A DNA stretch of 21,240 nucleotides. Source: a virus. Lineage: Duplodnaviria; Heunggongvirae; Uroviricota; Caudoviricetes. The notes under the pieces are model-generated. The model saw nothing but the letters and a program-made list of their open reading frames with translations. It did not search any database and was not told where the DNA came from. The stretch lies in IMG/VR virus record IMGVR_UViG_2744054964_000005; one strand, 5' to 3'. A program made the translations under genes and the position numbers. This document shows, piece after piece, positions 3,619 to 21,240 of the stretch (within the stretch, counting starts at the first letter, position 1; the number at the start of each line of letters is the position of its first letter).

Positions 3619-5893
3619 AGCCTCCGGGCGTTTTGTCCCTCCGTCAGCATTTACCGCAGGCACCAGTAAGGCGTTTACCGGTGCTTATGCATGGAACGCG
3701 CCACGCGAGGCTGTCGGGCGCGAAAGACCTCTTACACGTGACGAGATGCGTCAGGTGCAAGGTGTTTTATCCACGATTAACCGCCTGCCTTACTTTTTGC
3801 GCTCGCTGTTTACTTCACGCTATGACTACATCCGGCGCAATAAAAGCCCGGTGCACGGGTTTTATTTCCTCACATCTACTTTTCAGCGTCGTTTATGGCC
3901 GCGCATTGTGCGTGTGAATCAGCGCCATGAAATGAACACCGACGCGTCGTTGCTGTTTCTGGCAGAGCGCGACCAGTATGCGCGCTTGCCGGGGATGAAT
4001 GACAAGGAGCTGAAAAAGTTTGCCGCCCGTATCTCATCGCAGCTTTTCATGATGTATGAGGAACTCTGCGATGCATGGGTTGATGCGCATGGTGAAAAAG
4101 AATCGCTGTTTACGGATGAGGCGCAGGCTCACCTGTATGGTCATGTTGCTGGCGCTGCACGTGCTTTCAATATTTCCCCGCTCTACTGGAAAAAATACCG
4201 TAAAGGACAGATGACCACGAGGCAGGCATATTCTGCCATTGCCCGCCTGTTTAACGATGAGTGGTGGACTCATCAGCTTAAAGGCCAGCGTATGCGCTGG
4301 CATGAGGCGTTACTGATTGCTGTCGGGGAGGTCAATAAAGACCGTTCTCCTTATGCCAGTAAACATGCCATTCGTGATGTGCGTGCGCGCCGCCAGGCAA
4401 ATCTGGAATTTCTTAAATCGTGTGACCTTGAAAACAAGGAAACCGGCGAGCGCATCGACCTTATCAGTAAGGTGATGGGCAGTATTTCTAATCCTGAAAT
4501 TCGCCGGATGGAGCTGATGAACACCATTGCCGGTATTGAGCGTTACGCCGCCGCAGAGGGTGATGTGGGGATGTTTATCACGCTGACCGCGCCGTCAAAG
4601 TATCACCCGACACGTCAGGTCGGAAAAGGCGAAAGTAAAACCGTTCAGCTTAATCACGGCTGGAACGATGAGGCATTTAATCCAAAGGATGCGCAGCGTT
4701 ATCTCTGCCGTATCTGGAGCCTGATGCGCACGGCATTCAAGGATAATGATTTACAGGTCTACGGTTTGCGTGTCGTCGAGCCACACCACGACGGAACGCC
4801 GCACTGGCATATGATGCTTTTTTGTAATTCACGCCAGCGTAACCAGATTATCGAAATCATGCGTCGCTATGCGCTCAAAGAGGATGGCGACGAAAGAGGA
4901 GCCGCGCGAAACCGTTTTCAGGCAAAACACCTTAACCGGGGCGGTGCTGCGGGATATATCGCGAAATACATTTCAAAAAACATCGACGGCTATGCACTGG
5001 ATGGTCAGCTCGATAACGACACCGGCAGGCCGCTGAAAGACACTGCAGCGGCTGTTACCGCATGGGCGTCAACGTGGCGCATCCCGCAATTTAAAACGGT
5101 TGGCCTGCCGACAATGGGGGCTTACCGTGAACTACGCAAATTGCCGCGCGGCGTCAGCATTGCTGATGAGTTTGACGAGCGCGTCGAGGCTGCACGCGCC
5201 GCCGCAGACAGTGGTGATTTTGCGTTGTATATCAGCGCGCAGGGTGGGGCAAATGTCCCGCGCGATTGTCAGACTGTCAGAGTCGCCCGTAGCCCGTCGG
5301 ATGAAGTTAACGAGTACGAGGAAGAAGTCGAGAGAGTGGTCGGCATTTACGCGCCGCATCTCGGCGCGCGTCATATTCATATCACCAGAACGACGGACTG
5401 GCGCATTGTGCCGAAAGTTCCGGTCGTTGAGCCTTTGACTTTAAAAAGCGGCATCGCCGCGCCTCGGAGTCCTGTCAATAACTGTGGAAAGCTCACCGGT
5501 GGTGATACTTCGTTACCGGCTCCCACACCTTCTGAGCACGCCGCAGCAGTGCTTAATCTGGTTGATGACGGTGTTATTGAATGGAATGAACCGGAGGTCG
5601 TGAGGGCGCTCAGGGGCGCATTAAAACACGACCTGCGAACGCCAAACCGTCAGCAAAGAAACGGAAGCCCGTTAAAACCACATGAAATTGCACCATCGGC
5701 CAGACTGACCCGGTCGGAAAGAATGCAAATTACCCGTATCCGCGTTGACCTTGCTCAGAACGGTATCAGGCCGCAGCGATGGGAGCTTGAGGCGCTGGCG
5801 CGTGGCGCGACCATAAATTATGGCGGGGAAAAAGTCACGTATCCGGTCACTGATGAGTGGCCGGGATTCTCAACAGTAATGGAGTGGACATAA
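3608..5893 (+). CDS. A: Rolling-circle replication initiator, P2 gpA family (761 aa from the ATG at 3608; the ORF track begins at a TTG at 3566)
   Basis: Metal-binding HxH-type motif (EPHHDGTPHWHMMLF) and a Tyr-containing motif (GYIAKYISK) typical of rolling-circle Rep proteins. The length from ATG 3608 equals the P2 A length as I remember it. Confidence 0.9.
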   Translation: MAVKASGRFVPPSAFTAGTSKAFTGAYAWNAPREAVGRERPLTRDEMRQVQGVLSTINRLPYFLRSLFTSRYDYIRRNKSPVHGFYFLTSTFQRRLWPRIVRVNQRHEMNTDASLLFLAERDQYARLPGMNDKELKKFAARISSQLFMMYEELCDAWVDAHGEKESLFTDEAQAHLYGHVAGAARAFNISPLYWKKYRKGQMTTRQAYSAIARLFNDEWWTHQLKGQRMRWHEALLIAVGEVNKDRSPYASKHAIRDVRARRQANLEFLKSCDLENKETGERIDLISKVMGSISNPEIRRMELMNTIAGIERYAAAEGDVGMFITLTAPSKYHPTRQVGKGESKTVQLNHGWNDEAFNPKDAQRYLCRIWSLMRTAFKDNDLQVYGLRVVEPHHDGTPHWHMMLFCNSRQRNQIIEIMRRYALKEDGDERGAARNRFQAKHLNRGGAAGYIAKYISKNIDGYALDGQLDNDTGRPLKDTAAAVTAWASTWRIPQFKTVGLPTMGAYRELRKLPRGVSIADEFDERVEAARAAADSGDFALYISAQGGANVPRDCQTVRVARSPSDEVNEYEEEVERVVGIYAPHLGARHIHITRTTDWRIVPKVPVVEPLTLKSGIAAPRSPVNNCGKLTGGDTSLPAPTPSEHAAAVLNLVDDGVIEWNEPEVVRALRGALKHDLRTPNRQQRNGSPLKPHEIAPSARLTRSERMQITRIRVDLAQNGIRPQRWELEALARGATINYGGEKVTYPVTDEWPGFSTVMEWT

Positions 5894-6060
5894 TGGCAAA
5901 AATTCACGCAATATTAGATAATTTCGTACTGTATATATTTAGTGTTATTGAAAAATCTCGACAGAAAGAGCTTTCTGTATTTAATCGTTGCTTGCAGTTT
6001 GGTATTGTTTACCATGATTGTTTGTTAAGTGCTTTAAAGGTGAGGGATGAGCGAGTTTGA
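5893..6060 (+). CDS. Hypothetical 55-aa protein, first ORF of the AT-rich cargo locus (ORF track starts at 5857)
   Basis: ATG overlaps the A stop (TAATG, 5891-5895) and is preceded by GGAGTGG. The ORF is AT-rich and overlaps the start of the 612-aa ORF by 14 nt. Confidence 0.4.
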   Translation: MAKIHAILDNFVLYIFSVIEKSRQKELSVFNRCLQFGIVYHDCLLSALKVRDERV

Positions 6061-7885
6061 TGTTTTTTCTATTTCAGTTGATGATTTTAAAAAAAGTGAA
6101 TACGCCAGTATATTATCATCGCCAAGAAGTTATTCTCATTTTGATATGGAGTCTTATTTTGTTCAGTTGCTGTCATCTTACAAGCAAAAAAACGATGTAA
6201 GTTCTTGGCGGCTTTGCTATTTATTACGTGCGTTGTTTAATTTTAAATTTTCTAGGTCTGGTGATATTATCGGTTTTGAGCCAAAAATCATTCTCTATCC
6301 TGAGAGGGGCTATAGGCCTTCAGATTATAAGGAGAGTTTTTCAACAATATTAACTTGCATTAAAGAAAACTCCGATAATCCTTATATTATATCTAGGGTG
6401 TGTGATGTTTTATGGATAAATAACCGTAAGGATATAGACTCTGCCAATAAAGCAATAGAGTCATATTCTCTAATGGTTAATGATGCTTGCGATACTTTAA
6501 TAGAAAAACAAGAGTCAGGTGATATCCATATTTTTGATGTTGTTGACTGCTTGGATAGAGGTATCGCAATATCGCGCATGCTTATTGGCAGGAAAAAACA
6601 ACTACAAGGGGGGATAGTTGATTCAACATTAAGGTTATATCATGTATTAATAGACTCTGGTATATTCGCCGGTGTATTAAGAGTTTCTGAAATTCTTTAT
6701 AAGAATAATTTATTGTGTCCATTGCAATTGGCTGAGAATGCAGAAAAGATAGCTGATGAGCATTGTGGAGCGTCTTATTTTGATGCAGTGAAAAAATTGT
6801 TTTATTTTGCGTCTGAATTATATGTTAAAAACGATATGGAAGAGCAAGGAAGACGGTGCAGAATTAAAGCGTCAGAAATAACATTGGCTCAATTTGAACA
6901 GTCTTCATCTTCAATATTGAAGGCTCATTGGTTAAGAGTTGCTCTTGGCGAATTTAGAGCAATTGGTGGAATGAATGAAGAAATTAAAAAGATTAGAGAG
7001 GAATTGAATTCTATTCGAGATCAAATCAATGATGAAATGCACTTCTTTGCAATACCAATGGATCTTAGTGATGTTATCGCTCAGAAAGAGCATGTTTATA
7101 ATCAATTGGATTTCTCAAGGGTAATTAAAACTTTAATTGCTAGATTTAAGATTGTAAGTGCCAGTGAAATTATGGAAAGAGCTCGTTCCGATGCTAAAAA
7201 ACATTTTTTTCTTAATATGAGTGAAACGGTTGTTTATGATGATAGAGGGCGCGTTGTAGCAAGTCGTTCACCTTTGGATCCTGCGGGGGATATAAGTTTA
7301 AATGATGCTTGTGCAAATTATTTAAGAACTAGTAACATTGAGCATCAGGTCTATGTTTGTGGTGAGTTTGAAGTCGTTAGGCAAAGTGTGTTGGCTAGGT
7401 ATTCATTAAATGAAAATACATTTGACCCAATCTCACAACAAAGTGCATTTGTTCCACCTGGGTATGCAGAAATATTTTCTTTGGGGTTTTATAAGCTTTG
7501 GCAGGGAGATTATGTGTCTGCGTGTTATTTGTTATTGCCGCAATTGGAGAATTCAATTAGATGGATTTTAGAATTAAGAAGAAAAGAAACAACGAAAATA
7601 GATGTGTCGCTTTTTGAGGAGGCTACTAGCCTATCTCAAATGCTTGCAAATTATAGGAGTGAAATGGAAGGTGTTTTTGATAGTGATCATGTATTGACTA
7701 TGGATTTATTGTTCAATATGAAAGGTGGTGCTGCAATTAGACACACGATGGCTCATGGCAGGTATACTGTAAATCATTGTTATCAACCAACTTCAGTTTT
7801 TGCCTGTGTCTTTATCTTTTATTTAACTTGTTTGCCTTTATTTAGTGTATGGGAAGATAAAGTTGAACCTTATCTGGCTGATTAA
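6047..7885 (+). CDS. Uncharacterised 612-aa cargo protein; candidate HEPN-like anti-phage defence/abortive-infection effector (not Old, not Tin)
   Basis: Long uninterrupted ORF in visibly AT-rich DNA with a GGTGAGGG Shine-Dalgarno. No Walker A (GxxxxGK[ST]) motif. C-terminal IRHTMAHG (R565-x4-H570, nt 7739..7756) fits the HEPN R-x4-6-H signature, followed by a hydrophobic stretch (SVFACVFIFYLTCLPLFSVW). It occupies the P2 orf91/tin/old position between A and cos. Confidence 0.85.
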   Translation: MSEFDVFSISVDDFKKSEYASILSSPRSYSHFDMESYFVQLLSSYKQKNDVSSWRLCYLLRALFNFKFSRSGDIIGFEPKIILYPERGYRPSDYKESFSTILTCIKENSDNPYIISRVCDVLWINNRKDIDSANKAIESYSLMVNDACDTLIEKQESGDIHIFDVVDCLDRGIAISRMLIGRKKQLQGGIVDSTLRLYHVLIDSGIFAGVLRVSEILYKNNLLCPLQLAENAEKIADEHCGASYFDAVKKLFYFASELYVKNDMEEQGRRCRIKASEITLAQFEQSSSSILKAHWLRVALGEFRAIGGMNEEIKKIREELNSIRDQINDEMHFFAIPMDLSDVIAQKEHVYNQLDFSRVIKTLIARFKIVSASEIMERARSDAKKHFFLNMSETVVYDDRGRVVASRSPLDPAGDISLNDACANYLRTSNIEHQVYVCGEFEVVRQSVLARYSLNENTFDPISQQSAFVPPGYAEIFSLGFYKLWQGDYVSACYLLLPQLENSIRWILELRRKETTKIDVSLFEEATSLSQMLANYRSEMEGVFDSDHVLTMDLLFNMKGGAAIRHTMAHGRYTVNHCYQPTSVFACVFIFYLTCLPLFSVWEDKVEPYLAD

Positions 7886-13204: not shown

Positions 13205-13948
13205 ATGACGAGTCCTGCACAGCGCCACATGATGCGGGTCTCGGCAGCGATGACCGCGCAGCGGGACGCCGCCCCGCTGCGACATGCAACTGTCTATGAG
13301 CAGATGCTGGTCAAGCTGGCCGCAGACCAGCGCACACTGAAAGCGATTTATTCAAAAGAGCTGAAGGCCGCGAAAAAACGCGAACTGCTGCCGTTCTGGT
13401 TGCCGTGGGTGAACGGCGTGCTGGAGCAGGGCAAAGGTGCACAGGATGACATTCTGATGACGGTCATGCTGTGGCGTCTGGATACCGGCGATATTGCCGG
13501 TGCGCTGGAGATTGCCCGTTATGCCCTGAAGTACGGTCTGACCATGCCGGGTAAACACCGCCGTACCCCGCCGTACATGTTCACCGAGGAGGTAGCGCTT
13601 GCGGCCATGCGCGCCCACGCTGCCGGTGAATCTGTGGATACCCGCCTGCTGACGGAAACCCTTGAACTGACCGCCACGGCAGACATGCCTGATGAAGTGC
13701 GCGCAAAGCTGCACAAAATCACCGGTCTGTTTCTGCGTGACGGTGATGATGCCGCCGGTGCGCTGGCTCACCTGCAACGTGCGACACAGCTCGACTGTCA
13801 GGCAGGCGTCAAAAAAGAGATTGAACGACTGGAGCGGGAGCTGAAACCGAAGCCGGAGCCGCAGCCAAAAGCGGCCACCCGCGCCCCGCGTAAGACCCGG
13901 AGTGCGACACCGGCAAAACGTGGACGCCCGAAAAAGAAAGCCAGTTAA
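13205..13948 (+). CDS. M: Terminase small (endonuclease) subunit (P2 gpM)
   Basis: 247 aa with a basic Lys/Arg/Pro-rich C-terminus; GGGAG Shine-Dalgarno; follows N. Confidence 0.85.
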   Translation: MTSPAQRHMMRVSAAMTAQRDAAPLRHATVYEQMLVKLAADQRTLKAIYSKELKAAKKRELLPFWLPWVNGVLEQGKGAQDDILMTVMLWRLDTGDIAGALEIARYALKYGLTMPGKHRRTPPYMFTEEVALAAMRAHAAGESVDTRLLTETLELTATADMPDEVRAKLHKITGLFLRDGDDAAGALAHLQRATQLDCQAGVKKEIERLERELKPKPEPQPKAATRAPRKTRSATPAKRGRPKKKAS

Positions 13949-14557: not shown

Positions 14558-14760
14558 TGAAGACCTTTGCGCTACAGGGCGACACGCTCGACGCCATTTG
14601 TGTCCGGTATTACGGGCGCACTGAGGGCGTGGTTGAGACCGTGCTCGCCGCAAATCCGGGACTGGCTGAACTGGGCGCGGTGCTGCCGCACGGCACCGCC
14701 GTCGAACTGCCCGACGTTCAGACCGCGCCCGTGGCTGAAACTGTCAATCTGTGGGAGTAA
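14557..14760 (+). CDS. X: Tail protein X (P2 gpX), 67 aa
   Basis: ATG overlaps the L stop (TGATG). A 67-aa product fits P2 X; the ORF-track N-terminal extension has no support. Confidence 0.8.
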   Translation: MKTFALQGDTLDAICVRYYGRTEGVVETVLAANPGLAELGAVLPHGTAVELPDVQTAPVAETVNLWE

Positions 14761-14763
14761 CGC

Positions 14764-15045
14764 ATGACAGCAGAAGAAAAAAGCGTCCTGTCGCTTTTTA
14801 TGATTGGAGTGCTGATTGTTGTCGGCAAGGTGCTTGCCGGTGGTGAACCCATCACCCCGCGTCTGTTTATCGGGCGCATGTTGCTCGGTGGTTTTGTCTC
14901 GATGGTTGCCGGTGTTGTTCTGGTGCAGTTCCCTGACCTGTCACTGCCTGCGGTGTGCGGCATCGGCTCCATGCTGGGTATCGCCGGTTATCAGGTGATT
15001 GAGATTGCCATTCAGCGCCGCTTTAAGGGCAGGGGGAAACCGTAA
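14764..15045 (+). CDS. Y: Holin (P2 gpY)
   Basis: 93-aa protein with hydrophobic transmembrane segments and a charged C-terminus; first gene of the lysis cassette; GGGAG Shine-Dalgarno. Confidence 0.8.
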   Translation: MTAEEKSVLSLFMIGVLIVVGKVLAGGEPITPRLFIGRMLLGGFVSMVAGVVLVQFPDLSLPAVCGIGSMLGIAGYQVIEIAIQRRFKGRGKP

Positions 15046-15542
15046 TGCCGGTTATTAACACGCATCAGAATATCGCCGCCTTTCTCGACATGCTGGCCGT
15101 GTCCGAAGGGACGGCAAACCATCCGCTGACGAAAAACCGGGGCTATGACGTGATAGTCACCGGACTGGACGGGAAGCCGGAAATTTTCACCGACTACAGT
15201 GACCACCCGTTCGCACATGGCCGACCGGCGAAGGTGTTTAACCGTCGCGGTGAAAAATCCACGGCCTCCGGTCGCTATCAGCAGCTTTACCTGTTCTGGC
15301 CGCATTACCGCAAACAGCTTGCCCTGCCGGATTTCAGTCCGTTGTCACAGGACAGACTTGCCATTCAGTTGATCCGCGAACGCGGTGCACTGGATGACAT
15401 CCGGGCGGGACGCATTGAGCGCGCCATTTCACGCTGTCGCAATATCTGGGCGTCCCTGCCGGGTGCCGGTTACGGTCAGCGTGAGCATTCACTGGAAAAA
15501 CTGGTCACCGTCTGGCGTACCGCTGGCGGCGTACCGGCTTAA
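15045..15542 (+). CDS. K: Endolysin (P2 gpK; lambda R-like lytic transglycosylase/lysozyme)
   Basis: 165 aa with an N-terminal catalytic-Glu context (AVSEGT); start overlaps the Y stop (TAATG). Confidence 0.85.
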   Translation: MPVINTHQNIAAFLDMLAVSEGTANHPLTKNRGYDVIVTGLDGKPEIFTDYSDHPFAHGRPAKVFNRRGEKSTASGRYQQLYLFWPHYRKQLALPDFSPLSQDRLAIQLIRERGALDDIRAGRIERAISRCRNIWASLPGAGYGQREHSLEKLVTVWRTAGGVPA

Positions 15543-15556
15543 ACGGAGTAAACACC

Positions 15557-15982
15557 ATGAAGAAATTATCCCTTTCACTGATGCTGAACGTGTCGCTGGC
15601 GCTGATGCTGGCACTGTCCCTGATTTACCCGCAGAGCGTGGCCGTCAATTTTGTCGCCGCCTGGGCGATTCTGGCGACGGTTATCTGTGTGGTTGCCGGT
15701 GGTGTCGGCGTGTATGCCACTGAGTATGTGCTGGAACGCTACGGGCGGGAGCTGCCGCCGGAATCGCTGGCCGTGAAGATTGTCGCGTCGCTGTTTTTGC
15801 AGCCGGTGCCGTGGCGCAGATGGGCGGCGGCTCTGGTGGTGATGGTGGCGACGTTTATCTCGCTGGTCGCTGCCGGGTGGATTTTTACCGCGCTGATTTA
15901 CCTCGTGGCGTCGGTGTTCTTCCGGTTGATACGCACGGCCTGTCGTCAGCGTTTTGAGGGGCGGGAACCATGTCAAAGCTGA
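15557..15982 (+). CDS. lysA: LysA, multi-transmembrane lysis-timing protein
   Basis: 141-aa protein with several hydrophobic helices, between the endolysin and the spanins. Confidence 0.7.
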   Translation: MKKLSLSLMLNVSLALMLALSLIYPQSVAVNFVAAWAILATVICVVAGGVGVYATEYVLERYGRELPPESLAVKIVASLFLQPVPWRRWAAALVVMVATFISLVAAGWIFTALIYLVASVFFRLIRTACRQRFEGREPCQS

Positions 15983-16395
15983 TGATTGTGCTGGTTGTGT
16001 TGTTATCACTGGCGGTGGCCGGTCTGTTTCTGGCGAAGCATGAAAACGCCAGCCTGCGCACCTCGCTGGACAGGGCGAACAACGTCGCCAACGGGCAGCA
16101 GACGACCATCACCATGCTGAAAAATCAGCTTCATGTTGCCCTCGCCAGAGCAGACAAAAACGAGCTGGCGCAGGTGGCACTGCGTCAGGAACTGGAGAAC
16201 GCGGCGAAGCGTGAAGCACAGCGCGAGAAAACCATCACGAGGTTACTGAATGAAAACGAAGATTTTCGCCGCTGGTACGGCGCTGGCCTGCCTGATGCTG
16301 TGCGCCGGTTGCACCAGCGCCCGGCCTGCACCGACGCCAGTGATTGTCGCCAACGCCTGCCCGAAAGTGAGCCTTTGCCCGATGCCGGGCAGTGA
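15970..16395 (+). CDS. lysB: LysB, Rz-like inner-membrane spanin
   Basis: 141 aa with an N-terminal transmembrane helix followed by a charged coiled-coil region. Confidence 0.75.
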   Translation: MSKLMIVLVVLLSLAVAGLFLAKHENASLRTSLDRANNVANGQQTTITMLKNQLHVALARADKNELAQVALRQELENAAKREAQREKTITRLLNENEDFRRWYGAGLPDAVRRLHQRPACTDASDCRQRLPESEPLPDAGQ

Positions 16396-16540
16396 CCCGG
16401 AGACGAACGGCGATTTAAGTGCCGATATCCGACAGCTTGAGAACGCGCTGGCACGCTGTGCCAGCCAGGTAAAAATGATTAAACACTGTCAGGACGAAAA
16501 CGATGCTCAAACCCGACAGCCTGCGCAGGGCGCTGACTGA
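16250..16540 (+). CDS. lysC: LysC, Rz1-like outer-membrane lipoprotein spanin, starting inside lysB in another frame
   Basis: Signal peptide plus lipobox (LMLCAGC), Pro-rich; 96 aa; GAGG Shine-Dalgarno 8 nt upstream. Confidence 0.7.
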   Translation: MKTKIFAAGTALACLMLCAGCTSARPAPTPVIVANACPKVSLCPMPGSDPETNGDLSADIRQLENALARCASQVKMIKHCQDENDAQTRQPAQGAD

Positions 16541-16970
16541 TGCCGTCACGGTGCTGAAAACCAGTCCCGAGATGCTGCGGATATTCGTTGATAACGGGAG
16601 TATTGCCTCCACGCTGGCGACGTCGTTGTCATTCGAAAAGCGTTACACGCTCAATGTGATTGTGACCGACTTTACCGGTGATTTTGACCTGCTCATCGTG
16701 CCGGTGCTGGCGTGGCTGCGGGAAAATCAGCCCGACATCATGACCACCGACGCAGGCCAGAAAAAGGGCTTCACGTTTTATGCAGACATCAACAATGACA
16801 GCAGCTTTGATATCAGCATCAGCCTGATGCTGACCGAGCGCACGCTGGTCAGTGAGGTGGACGGCGCACTGCATGTGAAGAATATCCCGGAACCCACGCC
16901 GCCGGAGCCGGTCACCCGCCCGGCGGAGCTTTATATCAATGGCGAACTGGTGAGCAAGTGGGATGAATGA
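16503..16970 (+). CDS. R: Tail completion protein R
   Basis: 155 aa; position and length as in P2. Confidence 0.8.
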   Translation: MLKPDSLRRALTDAVTVLKTSPEMLRIFVDNGSIASTLATSLSFEKRYTLNVIVTDFTGDFDLLIVPVLAWLRENQPDIMTTDAGQKKGFTFYADINNDSSFDISISLMLTERTLVSEVDGALHVKNIPEPTPPEPVTRPAELYINGELVSKWDE

Positions 16971-17415
16971 GTTTAAGCGTTTTGAAGACCGGCTGACCGG
17001 ACTGGTTGAATCGCTGTCACCGTCAGGGCGTCGGCGACTGAGCGCCGAACTGGCGAAACGTCTGCGGCAGAGTCAGCAGCGTCGGGTGATGGCTCAGAAA
17101 GCCCCGGACGGCACACCCTACGCGCCACGCCAGCAGCAGAGCGCCAGAAAAAAGACTGGTCGTGTTAAGCGAAAAATGTTTGCGAAACTTATCACCAGTC
17201 GTTTTTTGCATATCCGCGCCAGCCCGGAACAGGCATCAATGGAGTTTTACGGCGGGAAGTCACCGAAAATCGCCAGCGTGCATCAGTTCGGTCTGTCGGA
17301 AGAAAACCGGAAAGACGGTAAGAAAATTGATTATCCGGCGCGTCCTCTGCTCGGCTTTACCAGTGAGGATGTGCAGATGATTGAAGAGATTATCCTGGCT
17401 CACCTCGACCGTTAG
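16963..17415 (+). CDS. S: Tail completion protein S
   Basis: 150 aa; overlaps the R stop; last gene before the V promoter region. Confidence 0.8.
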   Translation: MNEFKRFEDRLTGLVESLSPSGRRRLSAELAKRLRQSQQRRVMAQKAPDGTPYAPRQQQSARKKTGRVKRKMFAKLITSRFLHIRASPEQASMEFYGGKSPKIASVHQFGLSEENRKDGKKIDYPARPLLGFTSEDVQMIEEIILAHLDR

Positions 17416-17481
17416 TTGTGCCATTCCCGACACCTCATCGTTACATTGCCGCCGGTATGACCCGGCGGCATCCTTCCCGTT
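17416..17481 (+). promoter_or_regulatory. S-V intergenic region: expected late promoter for the V operon, containing a 9-bp-stem GC hairpin (17447..17470)
   Basis: TGCCGCCGG-TATGAC-CCGGCGGCA perfect inverted repeat. P2 has a late promoter at this position. Confidence 0.4.
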
Positions 17482-18117
17482 ATGAACACTCTCGCAAATA
17501 TCCAGGAACTCGCGCGCGCACTGCGCAACATGATTCGTACCGGCCTTGTCGTCGAAACCAACCTTAAAGCCGGTCGCTGCCGTGTGCAGACCGGCGGCAT
17601 GTGCACCGACTGGCTTCAGTGGCTGACCCATCGCGCCGGACGTTCGCGCACATGGTGGGCACCTTCCGTGGGGGAACAGGTGCTGATTCTGGCCGTGGGC
17701 GGTGAACTCGACACGGCGTTCGTTCTGCCGGGGATTTATTCCGGCGATAACCGCGCGCCGTCTGCGTCGGCGGATGCCCTGCATATCCGTTTCCCTGACG
17801 GGGCGGTGATTGAGTATGAACCCGAAACCAGTGCACTCACGGTAAGCGGAATTAAAACGGCCAGCGTGACGGCTTCTGATTCTGTTACTGCCACGGTACC
17901 GGTGGTCACGGTGAAAGCGTCAACCCGTGTCACCCTGGACACACCGGAAGTGGTCTGCACTAACAAACTGACTACCGGCACGCTGGAAGTGCAGAAGGGC
18001 GGGACGATGCGCGGCAACATTGAACACACCGGCGGTGAACTCTCATCAAACGGTAAGGTACTGCATACCCACAAACACCCCGGCGACAGCGGCGGCACAA
18101 CCGGGAGTCCTTTATGA
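17482..18117 (+). CDS. V: Baseplate spike/assembly protein V
   Basis: 211 aa; position and length as in P2. Confidence 0.85.
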   Translation: MNTLANIQELARALRNMIRTGLVVETNLKAGRCRVQTGGMCTDWLQWLTHRAGRSRTWWAPSVGEQVLILAVGGELDTAFVLPGIYSGDNRAPSASADALHIRFPDGAVIEYEPETSALTVSGIKTASVTASDSVTATVPVVTVKASTRVTLDTPEVVCTNKLTTGTLEVQKGGTMRGNIEHTGGELSSNGKVLHTHKHPGDSGGTTGSPL

Positions 18118-18461
18118 CAGCGCGTTATCTCGGAATGAATCGCAGTAATGGCCTGACTGTCACTGACCTTGAGCATATCAGCCAGAGTATCGGCGATATC
18201 CTGCGTACACCGGTCGGCTCACGGGTGATGCGTCGTGATTACGGCTCGTTGCTGGCATCAATGATTGACCAGCCGCAGACTCCGGCGCTTGAGTTGCAGA
18301 TTAAGGTCGCCTGTTACATGGCGGTACTGAAATGGGAACCCCGCGTCACCCTGTCATCCGTCACCACGGCGCGCAGTTTTGACGGGCGAATGACGGTCAC
18401 GTTAACCGGTCAGCACAACGACACCGGCCAGCCACTTTTGTTAACCATCCCTGTGAGTTGA
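18114..18461 (+). CDS. W: Baseplate assembly protein W (T4 gp25-like)
   Basis: 115 aa; GGGAG Shine-Dalgarno; start overlaps the V stop. Confidence 0.85.
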   Translation: MTARYLGMNRSNGLTVTDLEHISQSIGDILRTPVGSRVMRRDYGSLLASMIDQPQTPALELQIKVACYMAVLKWEPRVTLSSVTTARSFDGRMTVTLTGQHNDTGQPLLLTIPVS

Positions 18462-18465
18462 AACC

Positions 18466-19374
18466 ATGCCGATTATCGACCTGAACCAGCTACCCGCACC
18501 GGATGTGGTCGAGGAGCTGGACTTTGAAACCATTCTTGCCGAACGCAAGGCGACACTGATTTCCCTTTACCCGGAAGACCAGCAGGAGGCGGTCGCCCGT
18601 ACCCTGACGCTGGAATCCGAGCCTCTCGTCAAACTGCTGGAGGAAAACGCTTATCGTGAGCTTATCTGGCGTCAGCGTGTGAATGAGGCCGCACGGGCGG
18701 TGATGCTGGCCTGTGCCGCCGGTAATGACCTTGATGTGATTGGTGCCAATTACAACACCACGCGCCTGATTATCACCCCGGCAGATGATTCGACCATCCC
18801 GCCGACACCGGCAGTGATGGAGTCTGACACCGATTATCGTCTGCGTATTCAGCAGGCGTTTGAGGGCTTAAGCGTCGCCGGGTCTGTGGGAGCCTATCAG
18901 TATCATGGTCGCAGTGCCGACGGGCGTGTCGCGGATATCTCTGTCACCAGTCCGTCTCCGGCCTGCGTCACTATCTCCGTGCTGTCACGTGAAAATAACG
19001 GCGTCGCATCCGAAGACCTGCTGGCCGTGGTGCGTAACGCCCTTAATGGCGAGGACGTCAGGCCGGTGGCCGACCGCGTGACCGTGCAGTCTGCCGCCAT
19101 TGTTGAATATCAGATAAACGCCACGCTTTACCTTTACCCAGGTCCCGAAAGCGAACCCATCCGCGCTGCTGCCGTGAAAAAACTGGAAGCGTACATCACG
19201 GCACAGCACCGGCTTGGGCGCGACATCCGTCTGTCTGCCATTTATGCCGCTTTGCATGTGGAAGGCGTGCAACGTGTCGAACTGACTGCACCTCTGGCTG
19301 ACATTGTGCTCAACAGTACGCAGGCGTCTTTCTGCACCGAATACAGCGTCGTGACCGGAGGCTCGGATGAGTGA
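18466..19374 (+). CDS. J: Baseplate assembly protein J
   Basis: 302 aa; position and length as in P2. Confidence 0.85.
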   Translation: MPIIDLNQLPAPDVVEELDFETILAERKATLISLYPEDQQEAVARTLTLESEPLVKLLEENAYRELIWRQRVNEAARAVMLACAAGNDLDVIGANYNTTRLIITPADDSTIPPTPAVMESDTDYRLRIQQAFEGLSVAGSVGAYQYHGRSADGRVADISVTSPSPACVTISVLSRENNGVASEDLLAVVRNALNGEDVRPVADRVTVQSAAIVEYQINATLYLYPGPESEPIRAAAVKKLEAYITAQHRLGRDIRLSAIYAALHVEGVQRVELTAPLADIVLNSTQASFCTEYSVVTGGSDE

Positions 19375-19978
19375 TTCGCGCCTGCTGCCGACCGGCTCAT
19401 CACCGCTTGAAGTCGCCGCCGCAAGAGCCTGTGCGGAAATTGAAAAAACGCCGGTCAGTATTCGTGAGCTGTGGAACCCGGATACCTGTCCGGCAAATCT
19501 GCTGCCGTGGCTGGCGTGGTCATTTTCGGTTGACCGCTGGGATGATAAGTGGCCGGAAGCGACAAAACGCGCTGTTATCCGCGATGCGTATTTCATTCAC
19601 TGCCATAAGGGCACTATTGGTGCGATTCGCCGTGTGGTGGAGCCGCTCGGCTATCTGATTGAGGTGAGGGAGTGGTGGCAGCTCAACGAGGAGCCGGGGA
19701 CGTTCCGCATCGTTGTTGGCGTGCTTGAGCAGGGTATTACCGAGGAAATGTATCAGGAGCTGGAGCGTCTCGTTGCTGATGCAAAACCTGCAAGCCGCCA
19801 TCTGACGGGACTGGCTATCAGTTTAAGTACAACCGGCAACATTTTTGCCGGTGCGGGATGCTATCACGGCGACGCCCTGACGGTTTATCCCTACACCCCG
19901 GAGGCCATTATTGTCGGAGGGGATTATTTCCCAGCCTCGGCCATTCATTTAATTGATAACCTGAGAGTAAACGCATGA
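19367..19978 (+). CDS. I: Baseplate/tail protein I
   Basis: 203 aa; GGAGG Shine-Dalgarno; overlaps the J stop and the H start. Confidence 0.8.
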   Translation: MSDSRLLPTGSSPLEVAAARACAEIEKTPVSIRELWNPDTCPANLLPWLAWSFSVDRWDDKWPEATKRAVIRDAYFIHCHKGTIGAIRRVVEPLGYLIEVREWWQLNEEPGTFRIVVGVLEQGITEEMYQELERLVADAKPASRHLTGLAISLSTTGNIFAGAGCYHGDALTVYPYTPEAIIVGGDYFPASAIHLIDNLRVNA

Positions 19979-21240
19979 CAGTGAAATACTACGCCATTCT
20001 GACTAATCAGGGCGCAGCACGGCTGGCTAACGCGACGATGCTCGGCAGTAAGCTGAATCTGACGCAAATGGCCGTTGGTGATGCGAATGGTGTCTTGCCG
20101 ACACCAGACCCGGCACAGACAAAACTGATTAACCAGAAACGCATCGCGCCGCTGAATCTTCTGAGTGTTGACCCGAACAACCAGAGCCAGATTATTGCGG
20201 AGCAAATCATCCCTGAGAACGAGGGCGGATTCTGGATCCGTGAGATTGGGCTTTATGATGATGAAGGCGTACTCATTGCGGTGGCGAACTGCCCGGAAAC
20301 GTACAAACCGCAGTTGCAGGAAGGCAGTGGTCGTACCCAGACTATCCGCATGATTCTGGTTGTCACGAATACCGAAGCTATTACGCTGAAAATCGACCCG
20401 TCGGTGGTACTGGCGACCCGTAAATACGTGGATGATGAAGTCCTGGAATTAAGGCTGTATGTGGATGACCAGATGAGAAACCACATTGCCGCACAGGATC
20501 CTCATACCCAGTATGCACAGAAACATAATCCGACATTTACCGGAGAACCAAAAGCGCCGACGCCTGCCGCAGGAAATAACACCACGCGGATTGCGACCAC
20601 TGAGTTTGTTCAGGCCGCTATTACCGCTCTGATTAACGGTGCGCCAGCCACGCTGGACACACTGAAAGAAATTGCCGCAGCCATTAACAATGACCCGAAA
20701 TTCAGTACCACCATTAACAATGCGCTGTCAGGTAAGCAGCCACTGGACAATACGCTGACTCATTTGAGTGGAAAGGATGTTGCCGGTCTTCTCGCATACC
20801 TTGGTTTGGGAGAAGGCTCAGCGTTACCCATTGGTGTGCCTGTTCCGTGGCCTTCCGCCACTCCGCCAACAGGCTGGCTGAAATGCAATGGTGCGGCTTT
20901 TTCTGCTGAAGAGTATCCGGAACTGGCAAAGGCTTACCCGAACAATAAATTGCCAGATTTACGTGGTGAGTTTATTCGTGGCTGGGATGACGGGCGCGGT
21001 ATTGACGCGGGGCGCGGAATTCTGTCCGCTCAGGGTGACGCCATTCGAAATATCGTTGGGCATATCTCATTCGTGCGTTGTGGGCCTGAAAGTTCAGACC
21101 GTGCCGATGGCGCGTTTAGATACGATAGCAACTGGTCTACAAAAATTAAATCGACTGATTTAGCAGACAACTGGGGGAGCGTAGTCTCATTTGATGCCAG
21201 TCGCGTAGTTCCAACTGCACCAGAAAACCGTCCACGCAGT
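19975..21240 (+). CDS. H: Tail fibre protein H, 5' partial (runs off the window end); C-terminal part shows a tail-collar-type receptor-binding motif
   Basis: ATG at 19975 overlaps the I stop (ATGA). The frame stays open for 422 codons to the window end. The N-terminus has the P2-type fibre signature (TNQGAARLANAT...MAVGDANG). Not in the ORF track because no stop lies within the window. Confidence 0.85.
   Translation, partial: MTVKYYAILTNQGAARLANATMLGSKLNLTQMAVGDANGVLPTPDPAQTKLINQKRIAPLNLLSVDPNNQSQIIAEQIIPENEGGFWIREIGLYDDEGVLIAVANCPETYKPQLQEGSGRTQTIRMILVVTNTEAITLKIDPSVVLATRKYVDDEVLELRLYVDDQMRNHIAAQDPHTQYAQKHNPTFTGEPKAPTPAAGNNTTRIATTEFVQAAITALINGAPATLDTLKEIAAAINNDPKFSTTINNALSGKQPLDNTLTHLSGKDVAGLLAYLGLGEGSALPIGVPVPWPSATPPTGWLKCNGAAFSAEEYPELAKAYPNNKLPDLRGEFIRGWDDGRGIDAGRGILSAQGDAIRNIVGHISFVRCGPESSDRADGAFRYDSNWSTKIKSTDLADNWGSVVSFDASRVVPTAPENRPRS

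Follow-up and report, generated by a model that had tools for sequence, protein, structure and literature searches.

A tail-fibre gene H of a P2-like prophage carries a collar-type cassette joined at an invertase crossover site

The tail-fibre gene H at the end of the 21,240-nt stretch of DNA analysed here (the window; IMG/VR record IMGVR_UViG_2744054964_000005) is very probably a two-part fibre gene, in which a constant part of the P2 family is joined to a collar and tip cassette of a Gin/Cin/Pin-type invertible segment, and this arrangement has been fixed by deletion in a matching Escherichia coli genome. The reading is built on the domain content of H, the crossover site inside the gene, the sharing of the cassette with other elements, the occurrence of the segment in both orientations among sibling prophages and the loss of DNA by deletion in the matching genome, all of which we observe. 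A first-pass annotation had proposed that the distal part of H is recombinant and carries a collar-like receptor-binding segment, and had named lack of a collar match and full collinearity with P2 H as the outcomes that would contradict it; neither was found.

Results

H in a P2-like Prophage

The window covers the left two-thirds of a P2-like (Peduovirus) prophage, with the gene order integrase, C, cox, A, a cargo gene, Q, P, O, N, M, L, lysis genes, R, S, V, W, J, I and H. The order V-W-J-I-H is that of P2, and H lies in its P2 position after the baseplate genes J and I. Positions 1-20815 are 97.9% identical to Escherichia phage pro483, and positions 14700-21240 are 99.985% identical, with one nucleotide differing in 6,541, to a locus of E. 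coli 19SZHZ869Rt (L001), the matching genome. Between the replication gene A and the portal gene Q, the old/tin cargo hotspot of P2, there is a 612-aa ORF (6047-7885, + strand) that matches Pfam DUF7380 (6.6e-25) and, almost end to end, the PADLOC candidate defence family PDC-S39 (7e-69).

H occupies 19975-21240 on the + strand, starting with an ATG at 19975, and matches PHROG 327 (tail protein, 3e-202). The window end does truncate the gene, as was recognized initially, but by 10 codons only: 422 of the 432 codons lie inside the window, and the last 10 and the stop codon lie beyond its end. A full-length copy, 432 aa and 100% identical, is present in E. coli 19SZHZ869Rt (L001:5276-6574), with the C-terminus ...ENRPRSIAFNFIVRAA*. 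The N-terminal part (aa 1-150, 19975-20424, + strand) matches the P2-H-family domain PF12571 (E = 1.4e-62) and, judging from that family, is presumably the baseplate-attachment part of the constant region, Hc. It is followed by the shaft or linker of the constant region (aa 151-271, 20425-20788, + strand), which carries a widespread 'ATLDTLKEIAAAINNDPKF' fibre motif, gives a second BLASTP segment to P2 H aa 246-364 and matches PDB 9d93 ('tail collar fibers gp4'). The last 143 aa of H fall in PHROG families named 'tail collar fiber protein'.

The initial description of the N-terminus as P2-type is accurate at the family level (PF12571) and too generous at the level of sequence, as H is only 42% identical to canonical P2 H (locus L003, 669 aa) over aa 26-259, with no alignment beyond about aa 260-280. 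At the DNA level, the window is 94% identical to canonical P2 over 17674-19803 (V, W, J and most of I), and similarity is lost from there on. P2 H contains PF12571, PF03406 and PF21446 (Phage_fiber_2 repeats and a Gp34_trimer domain), a Pfam search of it finds no Collar domain, and neither alignment nor Pfam content indicates collinearity with the distal specificity part of window H. The specificity module is thus a different one from that of P2, as had been suspected.

The loss of P2 similarity begins in the baseplate gene I (19367-19978, + strand), whose last ~58 codons, from 19804, are part of the non-P2 block that also includes H. Positions 19797-19803 are a recurrent breakpoint in this gene, at which similarity to canonical P2, pro147, STYP1, GMS190 and PhiR44_1 ends. 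Because all five phages lose similarity there, the 3' end of I would travel with the N-terminal domain of H, which suggests a co-adapted I-H interface.

The Collar Domain and the Anatomy of the Cassette

Pfam places its Phage Tail Collar Domain (PF07484) at aa 287-334 of H (20833-20976), with E = 7.1e-15 and 55.2 bits against a gathering score of 24, and the match spans profile positions 1-57 of 57. The collar peptide quoted in the first-pass annotation, PWPSATPPTGWLKCNGAAFSAEEYPELAKAYPNNKLPDLRGEFIRGWDDGRGIDAGRG, is indeed in frame in H (codons 290-347, 20842-21015), and the collar signal is far beyond chance. The cassette family comprises 4,869 database proteins at E ≤ 1e-3, and PF07484 is present in all 120 homologues among the matches listed.

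Alignment of 27 members of the cassette family, H and 26 homologues, gives a conservation profile of three blocks (mean identity 0.93, 0.33 and 0.90). The proximal block (aa 277-360, 20803-21054, + strand), which contains the Collar domain and the main alignment to T4 gp37, is conserved at 93% mean identity. It is followed by a hypervariable insert (aa 361-405, 21055-21189, + strand), a putative receptor-contacting tip, which has a mean identity of 33%, with indels, and is accompanied by megablast breakpoints at 21005 and 21054. The third block (aa 406-432, FDASRVVPTAPENRPRSIAFNFIVRAA), the start of which lies at 21190-21240 (+ strand), is conserved at 90% and would be the positional equivalent of the strand that returns to the collar. 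Upstream of GLGE the aligned sequences are mutually unrelated, consisting of differing P2-type and other constant parts and of short spurious ORFs from silent copies.

In T4 gp37, the collar is formed by residues 811-860 and 1016-1026, and the chain leaves the collar via a needle to the receptor-binding head and then returns (PMC12724248, PMC12609058). H aa 282-358 align to gp37 residues 811-881 (PDB 2XGF, E = 8e-15). At the C-terminus, where a conserved ..NIAFN(Y/F)IVR.A is common to gp37 (1010-1026), a count on the printed alignment gives 11 matching residues of 16 between H aa 417-432 and gp37 1011-1026; the separate HMMER domain score is not significant. Matches to T4 gp12 are weak (PDB 1OCY/1PDI, 0.009-0.02). 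The motif had been attributed to fibres of the T4 gp12 or Mu type; gp12 does belong here, though gp37 is the better match, and Mu does not, since a Pfam search of Mu S and S' finds no PF07484.

By sequence alignment, H would contain a collar fold that is completed by the C-terminal strand, with the insert placed between the two collar halves. Because the gp37 chain leaves the collar and returns, aa 361-405 are, by analogy, most likely the distal receptor-contacting element. A long needle is unlikely in H because the insert between the collar parts is short (~70-80 aa, compared with ~155 aa in gp37) and has no HxH iron-binding repeats. HxH is absent from the window allele (21055-21189) and from most 'GDAIRNI' alleles, and the tip of e14 StfE (L009 5120-5656) has an H-A-H motif (..EDHAHGLP..) that recalls the HxH repeats by which the gp37 needle binds metal.

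The collar sub-type of H has no solved structure, unlike the T4 gp37 tip (2XGF) and gp12 (1OCY/1PDI). The best PDB sequence match of H is chain c of 9CUY, the phiTE short tail fibre (1.2e-28), which was rejected as a structural guide because only its residues 3-92 are modelled and the matched region is absent. An AlphaFold2 monomer of aa 270-432, computed with the 27-sequence alignment, was unusable (mean pLDDT 46.2, pTM 0.30). The 'collar domain' described for Ur-lambda Stf is something else, an N-terminal ring that encircles the tail, and has no bearing on H.

A Crossover Site at the Constant/Variable Junction

A 26-bp crossover site of the Din-family (Gin/Cin/Pin/Hin) invertases, TTCTCGCATACC-TT-GGTTTGGGAGAA, lies at 20789-20814, at the constant/variable junction of H. 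The junction had earlier been placed at about 20820, near this position, and can now be tied to a defined site. The site is an imperfect palindrome, with the central TT at 20801-20802, and encodes ..LLAYLGLGE... A pattern search finds it once in the window, which is weak evidence when taken alone as the pattern was drawn up after seeing the window sequence.

Comparison with known sites points the same way. The 16-mer TTGGTTTGGGAGAAGG at 20801-20816 is the exact inverted repeat of the e14 P segment inversion, and inversion of that segment by PinQ and PinE at this repeat has been shown experimentally (PMC12529663); other experiments showed inversion both in e14 and in P2-like EPEC prophages (PMC4272514). 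Mu gixL corresponds to the window site in position, lying within gene S where the boundary of the G segment is annotated, and is identical to it at 17 of 26 positions (manual count). Furthermore, sites were counted by searching for the inner half-site GGTTTGGGAGA with ≤1 mismatch, which catches the invertase-proximal sites, in which the outer half differs and is TTTTCATAAACG. Exactly two inverted sites were found in each of the P1-like phage-plasmid pZBEC21_01 (L004), the prophage of E. coli OW1E2 (L006), two further intact sibling loci (L005 and L007) and e14 of E. coli K-12 (L009), and one in the window and in L001.

Alignment breakpoints against relatives cluster at 20797, 20801 and 20815. 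Matches to pro483 and two other phages stop at 20814-20816, and pro483, 97.9% identical up to 20815, is unrelated beyond it. Matches to P1-like plasmids and to many chromosomal copies begin at 20796-20801, with the plasmid matches starting at positions 8-13 of the 26-bp site, its centre. With relatives discordant on either side of the crossover site at which the cassette is joined, the proposal that the distal part of H is recombinant is borne out.

Both Orientations of the Segment in Relatives

In pZBEC21_01, an unbiased inverted-repeat search returned, as its top pair, the site aligned with that of the window and an inverted partner 1.8 kb away. Between the two lie tfa and, in inverted orientation, tfa' and a gp53-like fibre end; an intact recombinase with Resolvase and HTH_7 domains adjoins the pair. 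From nt 822 of L001 H to 57 nt past the tfa stop, the plasmid and L001 are 95.3% identical. The plasmid's fibre gene upstream of the cassette is an annotated pseudogene followed by a separate 277-aa ORF (L004 3868-4609 / 4645-5478), and its active fibre gene may be disrupted although the invertible segment is intact.

The OW1E2 prophage shows the opposite state. Its I and Hc are 99.93% identical to those of L001, and Hc is fused to the gp53-like end, with the collar cassette and tfa inverted and silent. The inverted cassette and tfa are 98.2% identical overall, and 100% identical over window positions 20801-21240, and the intact recombinase next to them has 197 aa and shares 81% identity with Mu Gin. 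At one joint, the outer half of Hc, TTCTCGCATACC, is followed by ...GAGAAGCGGC of the gp53-like cassette, and at the other the invertase-proximal outer half, TTTTCATAAACG, is followed by ...GAGAAGGCTC of the collar cassette. In their half-site combinations, the two joints are precisely what a crossover at the central TT leaves as reciprocal products. In L005 and L007, which are intact systems, the collar cassette is ON, and the segment is therefore found in both orientations, inverted in L006 relative to L001, L005 and L007. The tfa gene travels with the cassette in all loci examined; that of L001 encodes 200 aa and matches PF02413 (3.7e-31). Both a downstream chaperone and an invertible segment, which the first-pass annotation had suggested looking for, exist in matching genomes.

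Distribution of the Cassette and Route of Spread

Some part of the cassette and tfa is present in ~2,400 of 5,426 complete E. coli genomes, and the full tip variant (aa 361-405) in about a dozen of them. About 1,600 E. coli records match window positions 20700-21054 at 90-95%, only 13 records cover ≥80% of 20700-21240, and two of 20,395 records match 20700-21240 at ≥99%, 19SZHZ869Rt matching that whole stretch at 100%. The tip of the window together with its tfa is found at ≥94% identity in ~13 records. Related cassettes are carried by 169 plasmids, most of them non-mobilizable and many 80-100 kb in size, and the one plasmid examined, pZBEC21_01, has a P1-like layout. Several collar-cassette tail-fibre proteins of ~249 aa (P0076, P0087 and P0093) are named 'integrase' in NCBI or nr records, probably by annotation carry-over from the neighbouring invertase.

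How the cassette moves between phages is a separate matter. Din invertases have a strong preference for intramolecular inverted sites, which favours a route in which homologous recombination, using the site and collar on one side and the conserved 3' end of tfa on the other, has spread the cassette between phages, while the invertase serves only for switching within a genome. The chances of this route seem to us about even. Further breakpoints at 20727, 21005 and 21054, in or at the end of the conserved collar block and away from the sites, are in agreement with it, as is the swapping of the tip independently of the collar that the counts for 20700-21054 and 20700-21240 reveal, and the sharp breakpoints at the site are compatible with it as well, if the conserved site and collar sequence act as a homology patch. 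The start of the plasmid matches at the site centre, however, also fits site-specific exchange. Homologous spread does not conflict with the two-part reading of H, and bears on the route of horizontal spread alone.

A Deletion Locks the Collar-Type Fibre ON in the Matching Genome

It is in the matching public genome L001, downstream of the window end, that tfa, the deletion and the remains of an invertase gene were seen. After tfa, L001 follows the inverted tfa' for 57 nt and then, at 7233, enters the last 161 nt of an invertase gene. About 1.2 kb is missing. With it went the remainder of tfa', the alternative fibre end and the second site, as well as 433 nt of the invertase gene (about three-quarters of it), among them the 5' part in which a Fis-dependent enhancer would lie. 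RefSeq annotates a 75-nt inverted tfa pseudogene and a 153-nt HTH pseudogene at the junction, the latter a 50-aa remnant that scores 27.4 bits against the HTH_7 domain of resolvases. Searches of L001 found one crossover site and no second inverted one, unlike L004-L007 and e14, and next to its cassette only the HTH_7 remnant and no intact serine invertase. With the alternative cassette gone, and with it the second site and most of the invertase gene, the L001 lineage has its collar-type fibre locked ON. From its near-identity to L001, we infer that the window's own genome shares the deletion.

The junction between the tfa' remnant and the invertase HTH is identical in 29 complete E. coli genomes. 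In most of the genomes listed, the prophage lies ~17-22 kb from the record start, and because of this the locked state looks like a vertically spreading lineage and not a one-off event.

The window ends before the informative region, and its own genome might in principle still be switchable, either by having kept the second cassette and invertase, as the intact siblings L005-L007 have, or through a resident invertase (PinE, PinQ or that of another prophage) acting in trans, as PinQ does on e14 sites with the same 16-mer (PMC12529663). We regard this as unlikely. The window differs from 19SZHZ869Rt at the single nucleotide in 6,541 noted above, and 19SZHZ869Rt, 100% identical over 20700-21240, has the deletion and a single site, so that no inversion is possible there even with an invertase supplied in trans. 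A deletion-fixed fibre is the preferred reading for the window's genome too.

Receptor masking has recently been claimed for chimeric e14 Stf proteins (PMC12529663). The rare tip (aa 361-405) combined with the ON-locking deletion might mark a lineage in which the collar-type fibre was fixed by selection, either for a new receptor specificity or for a host-beneficial role such as receptor masking, a speculation to which we attach little probability.

Discussion

The organization of H can be compared with several known systems. The closest is the e14 P segment (stfP/tfaP - tfaE/stfE - pinE), which has the same two cassette types, collar with the 200-aa TfaE and gp53-like with a shorter Tfa, an identical inner half-site and 16-mer, and an invertase in the same position and orientation as in the intact siblings. 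The Tfa of the matching genome is 88.5% identical to TfaE in amino acid sequence, and the cassette matches stfE at 91.8% nucleotide identity over its first 208 nt. The cassette is, however, only 58% identical to StfE overall, its hypervariable tip (aa 361-405) is unrelated, and where the defective element e14 has a short StfP stub, the constant part here is a complete P2-family H in an apparently complete P2-like prophage. The switch is moreover deleted in the window-matching genome.

With the Mu G segment and Gin and the P1 C segment and Cin, the system shares a split fibre gene, in which one constant part is combined with one or another of the variable parts and each of these has a tfa of its own, as well as a 26-bp crossover site inside the fibre ORF; the sibling invertase resembles Gin (see above), and the cassette itself is present, at 95% identity, in a P1-like phage-plasmid. 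In Mu, by contrast, Sv and S'v are of the Gp34_trimer and gp37_C types, none is of the collar type, and the constant parts are unrelated. P2 H and G share with the window the gene position (V-W-J-I-H-G-FI), PF12571, a downstream Caudo_TAP chaperone and a gix-like site inside H, and differ in the Gp34_trimer-type distal part without Collar and in the divergence that starts already in gene I. The site of P2 H, TTATCGAATATCTCGGTTTACAGGAA (L003 3358-3383, record 13857-13882), is a gix-like relic that encodes ..IEYLGLQE.. and matches Mu gixL at all but 3 of its 26 positions; P2 has no invertase.

On the two-part reading, the constant part of H (aa 1 to ~276) would anchor a trimeric fibre to the baseplate, and the variable part (aa 277-432) would form one cassette, in which a short hypervariable insert, most likely the receptor-contacting element, splits a collar like that of T4 gp37 and gp12. 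Assembly would presumably depend on the TfaE-type chaperone, the gene for which lies directly beyond the window. In intact relatives, a serine invertase would recombine the two inverted 26-bp sites, so that inversion would exchange the collar and Tfa cassette for the gp53-like and Tfa' cassette and thereby switch the host range. The cassette circulates between three kinds of element, e14, P1-like phage-plasmids and P2-like prophages, with the 26-bp site as the constant point of joining, and in the matching genome the ~1.2-kb deletion has fixed the fibre in its collar-type state.

Vertical inheritance of the collar segment within a P2-like sub-lineage, with no exchange and a palindromic 26-mer that merely reflects LGLGE coding, is highly improbable and in effect already refuted, because, although the closest phages, MET_P1_103_31 and 'P2' from O157:H43 T22, follow the window collinearly across the collar (as far as 21054 and 21005, respectively) and the site pattern was derived from the window itself, the similarity to pro483 ends exactly at 20815, P1-like plasmids and e14 are unrelated upstream of the site and 88-95% identical from it onward, the site pairs with an inverted copy beside a recombinase in five independent loci, and OW1E2 shows the reciprocal inversion product.

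All the elements involved, the collar cassette, Tfa, the invertible segment and the P2-family H, are of known kinds, and the present findings leave tail-fibre biology unchanged. They do provide exact module boundaries for this fibre, of practical use in annotation and phage engineering, and they show a cassette that is interchangeable among P2-like, P1-like and e14-type elements. The locus thus offers a natural example of a phase-variable host-range switch that has been frozen by deletion.
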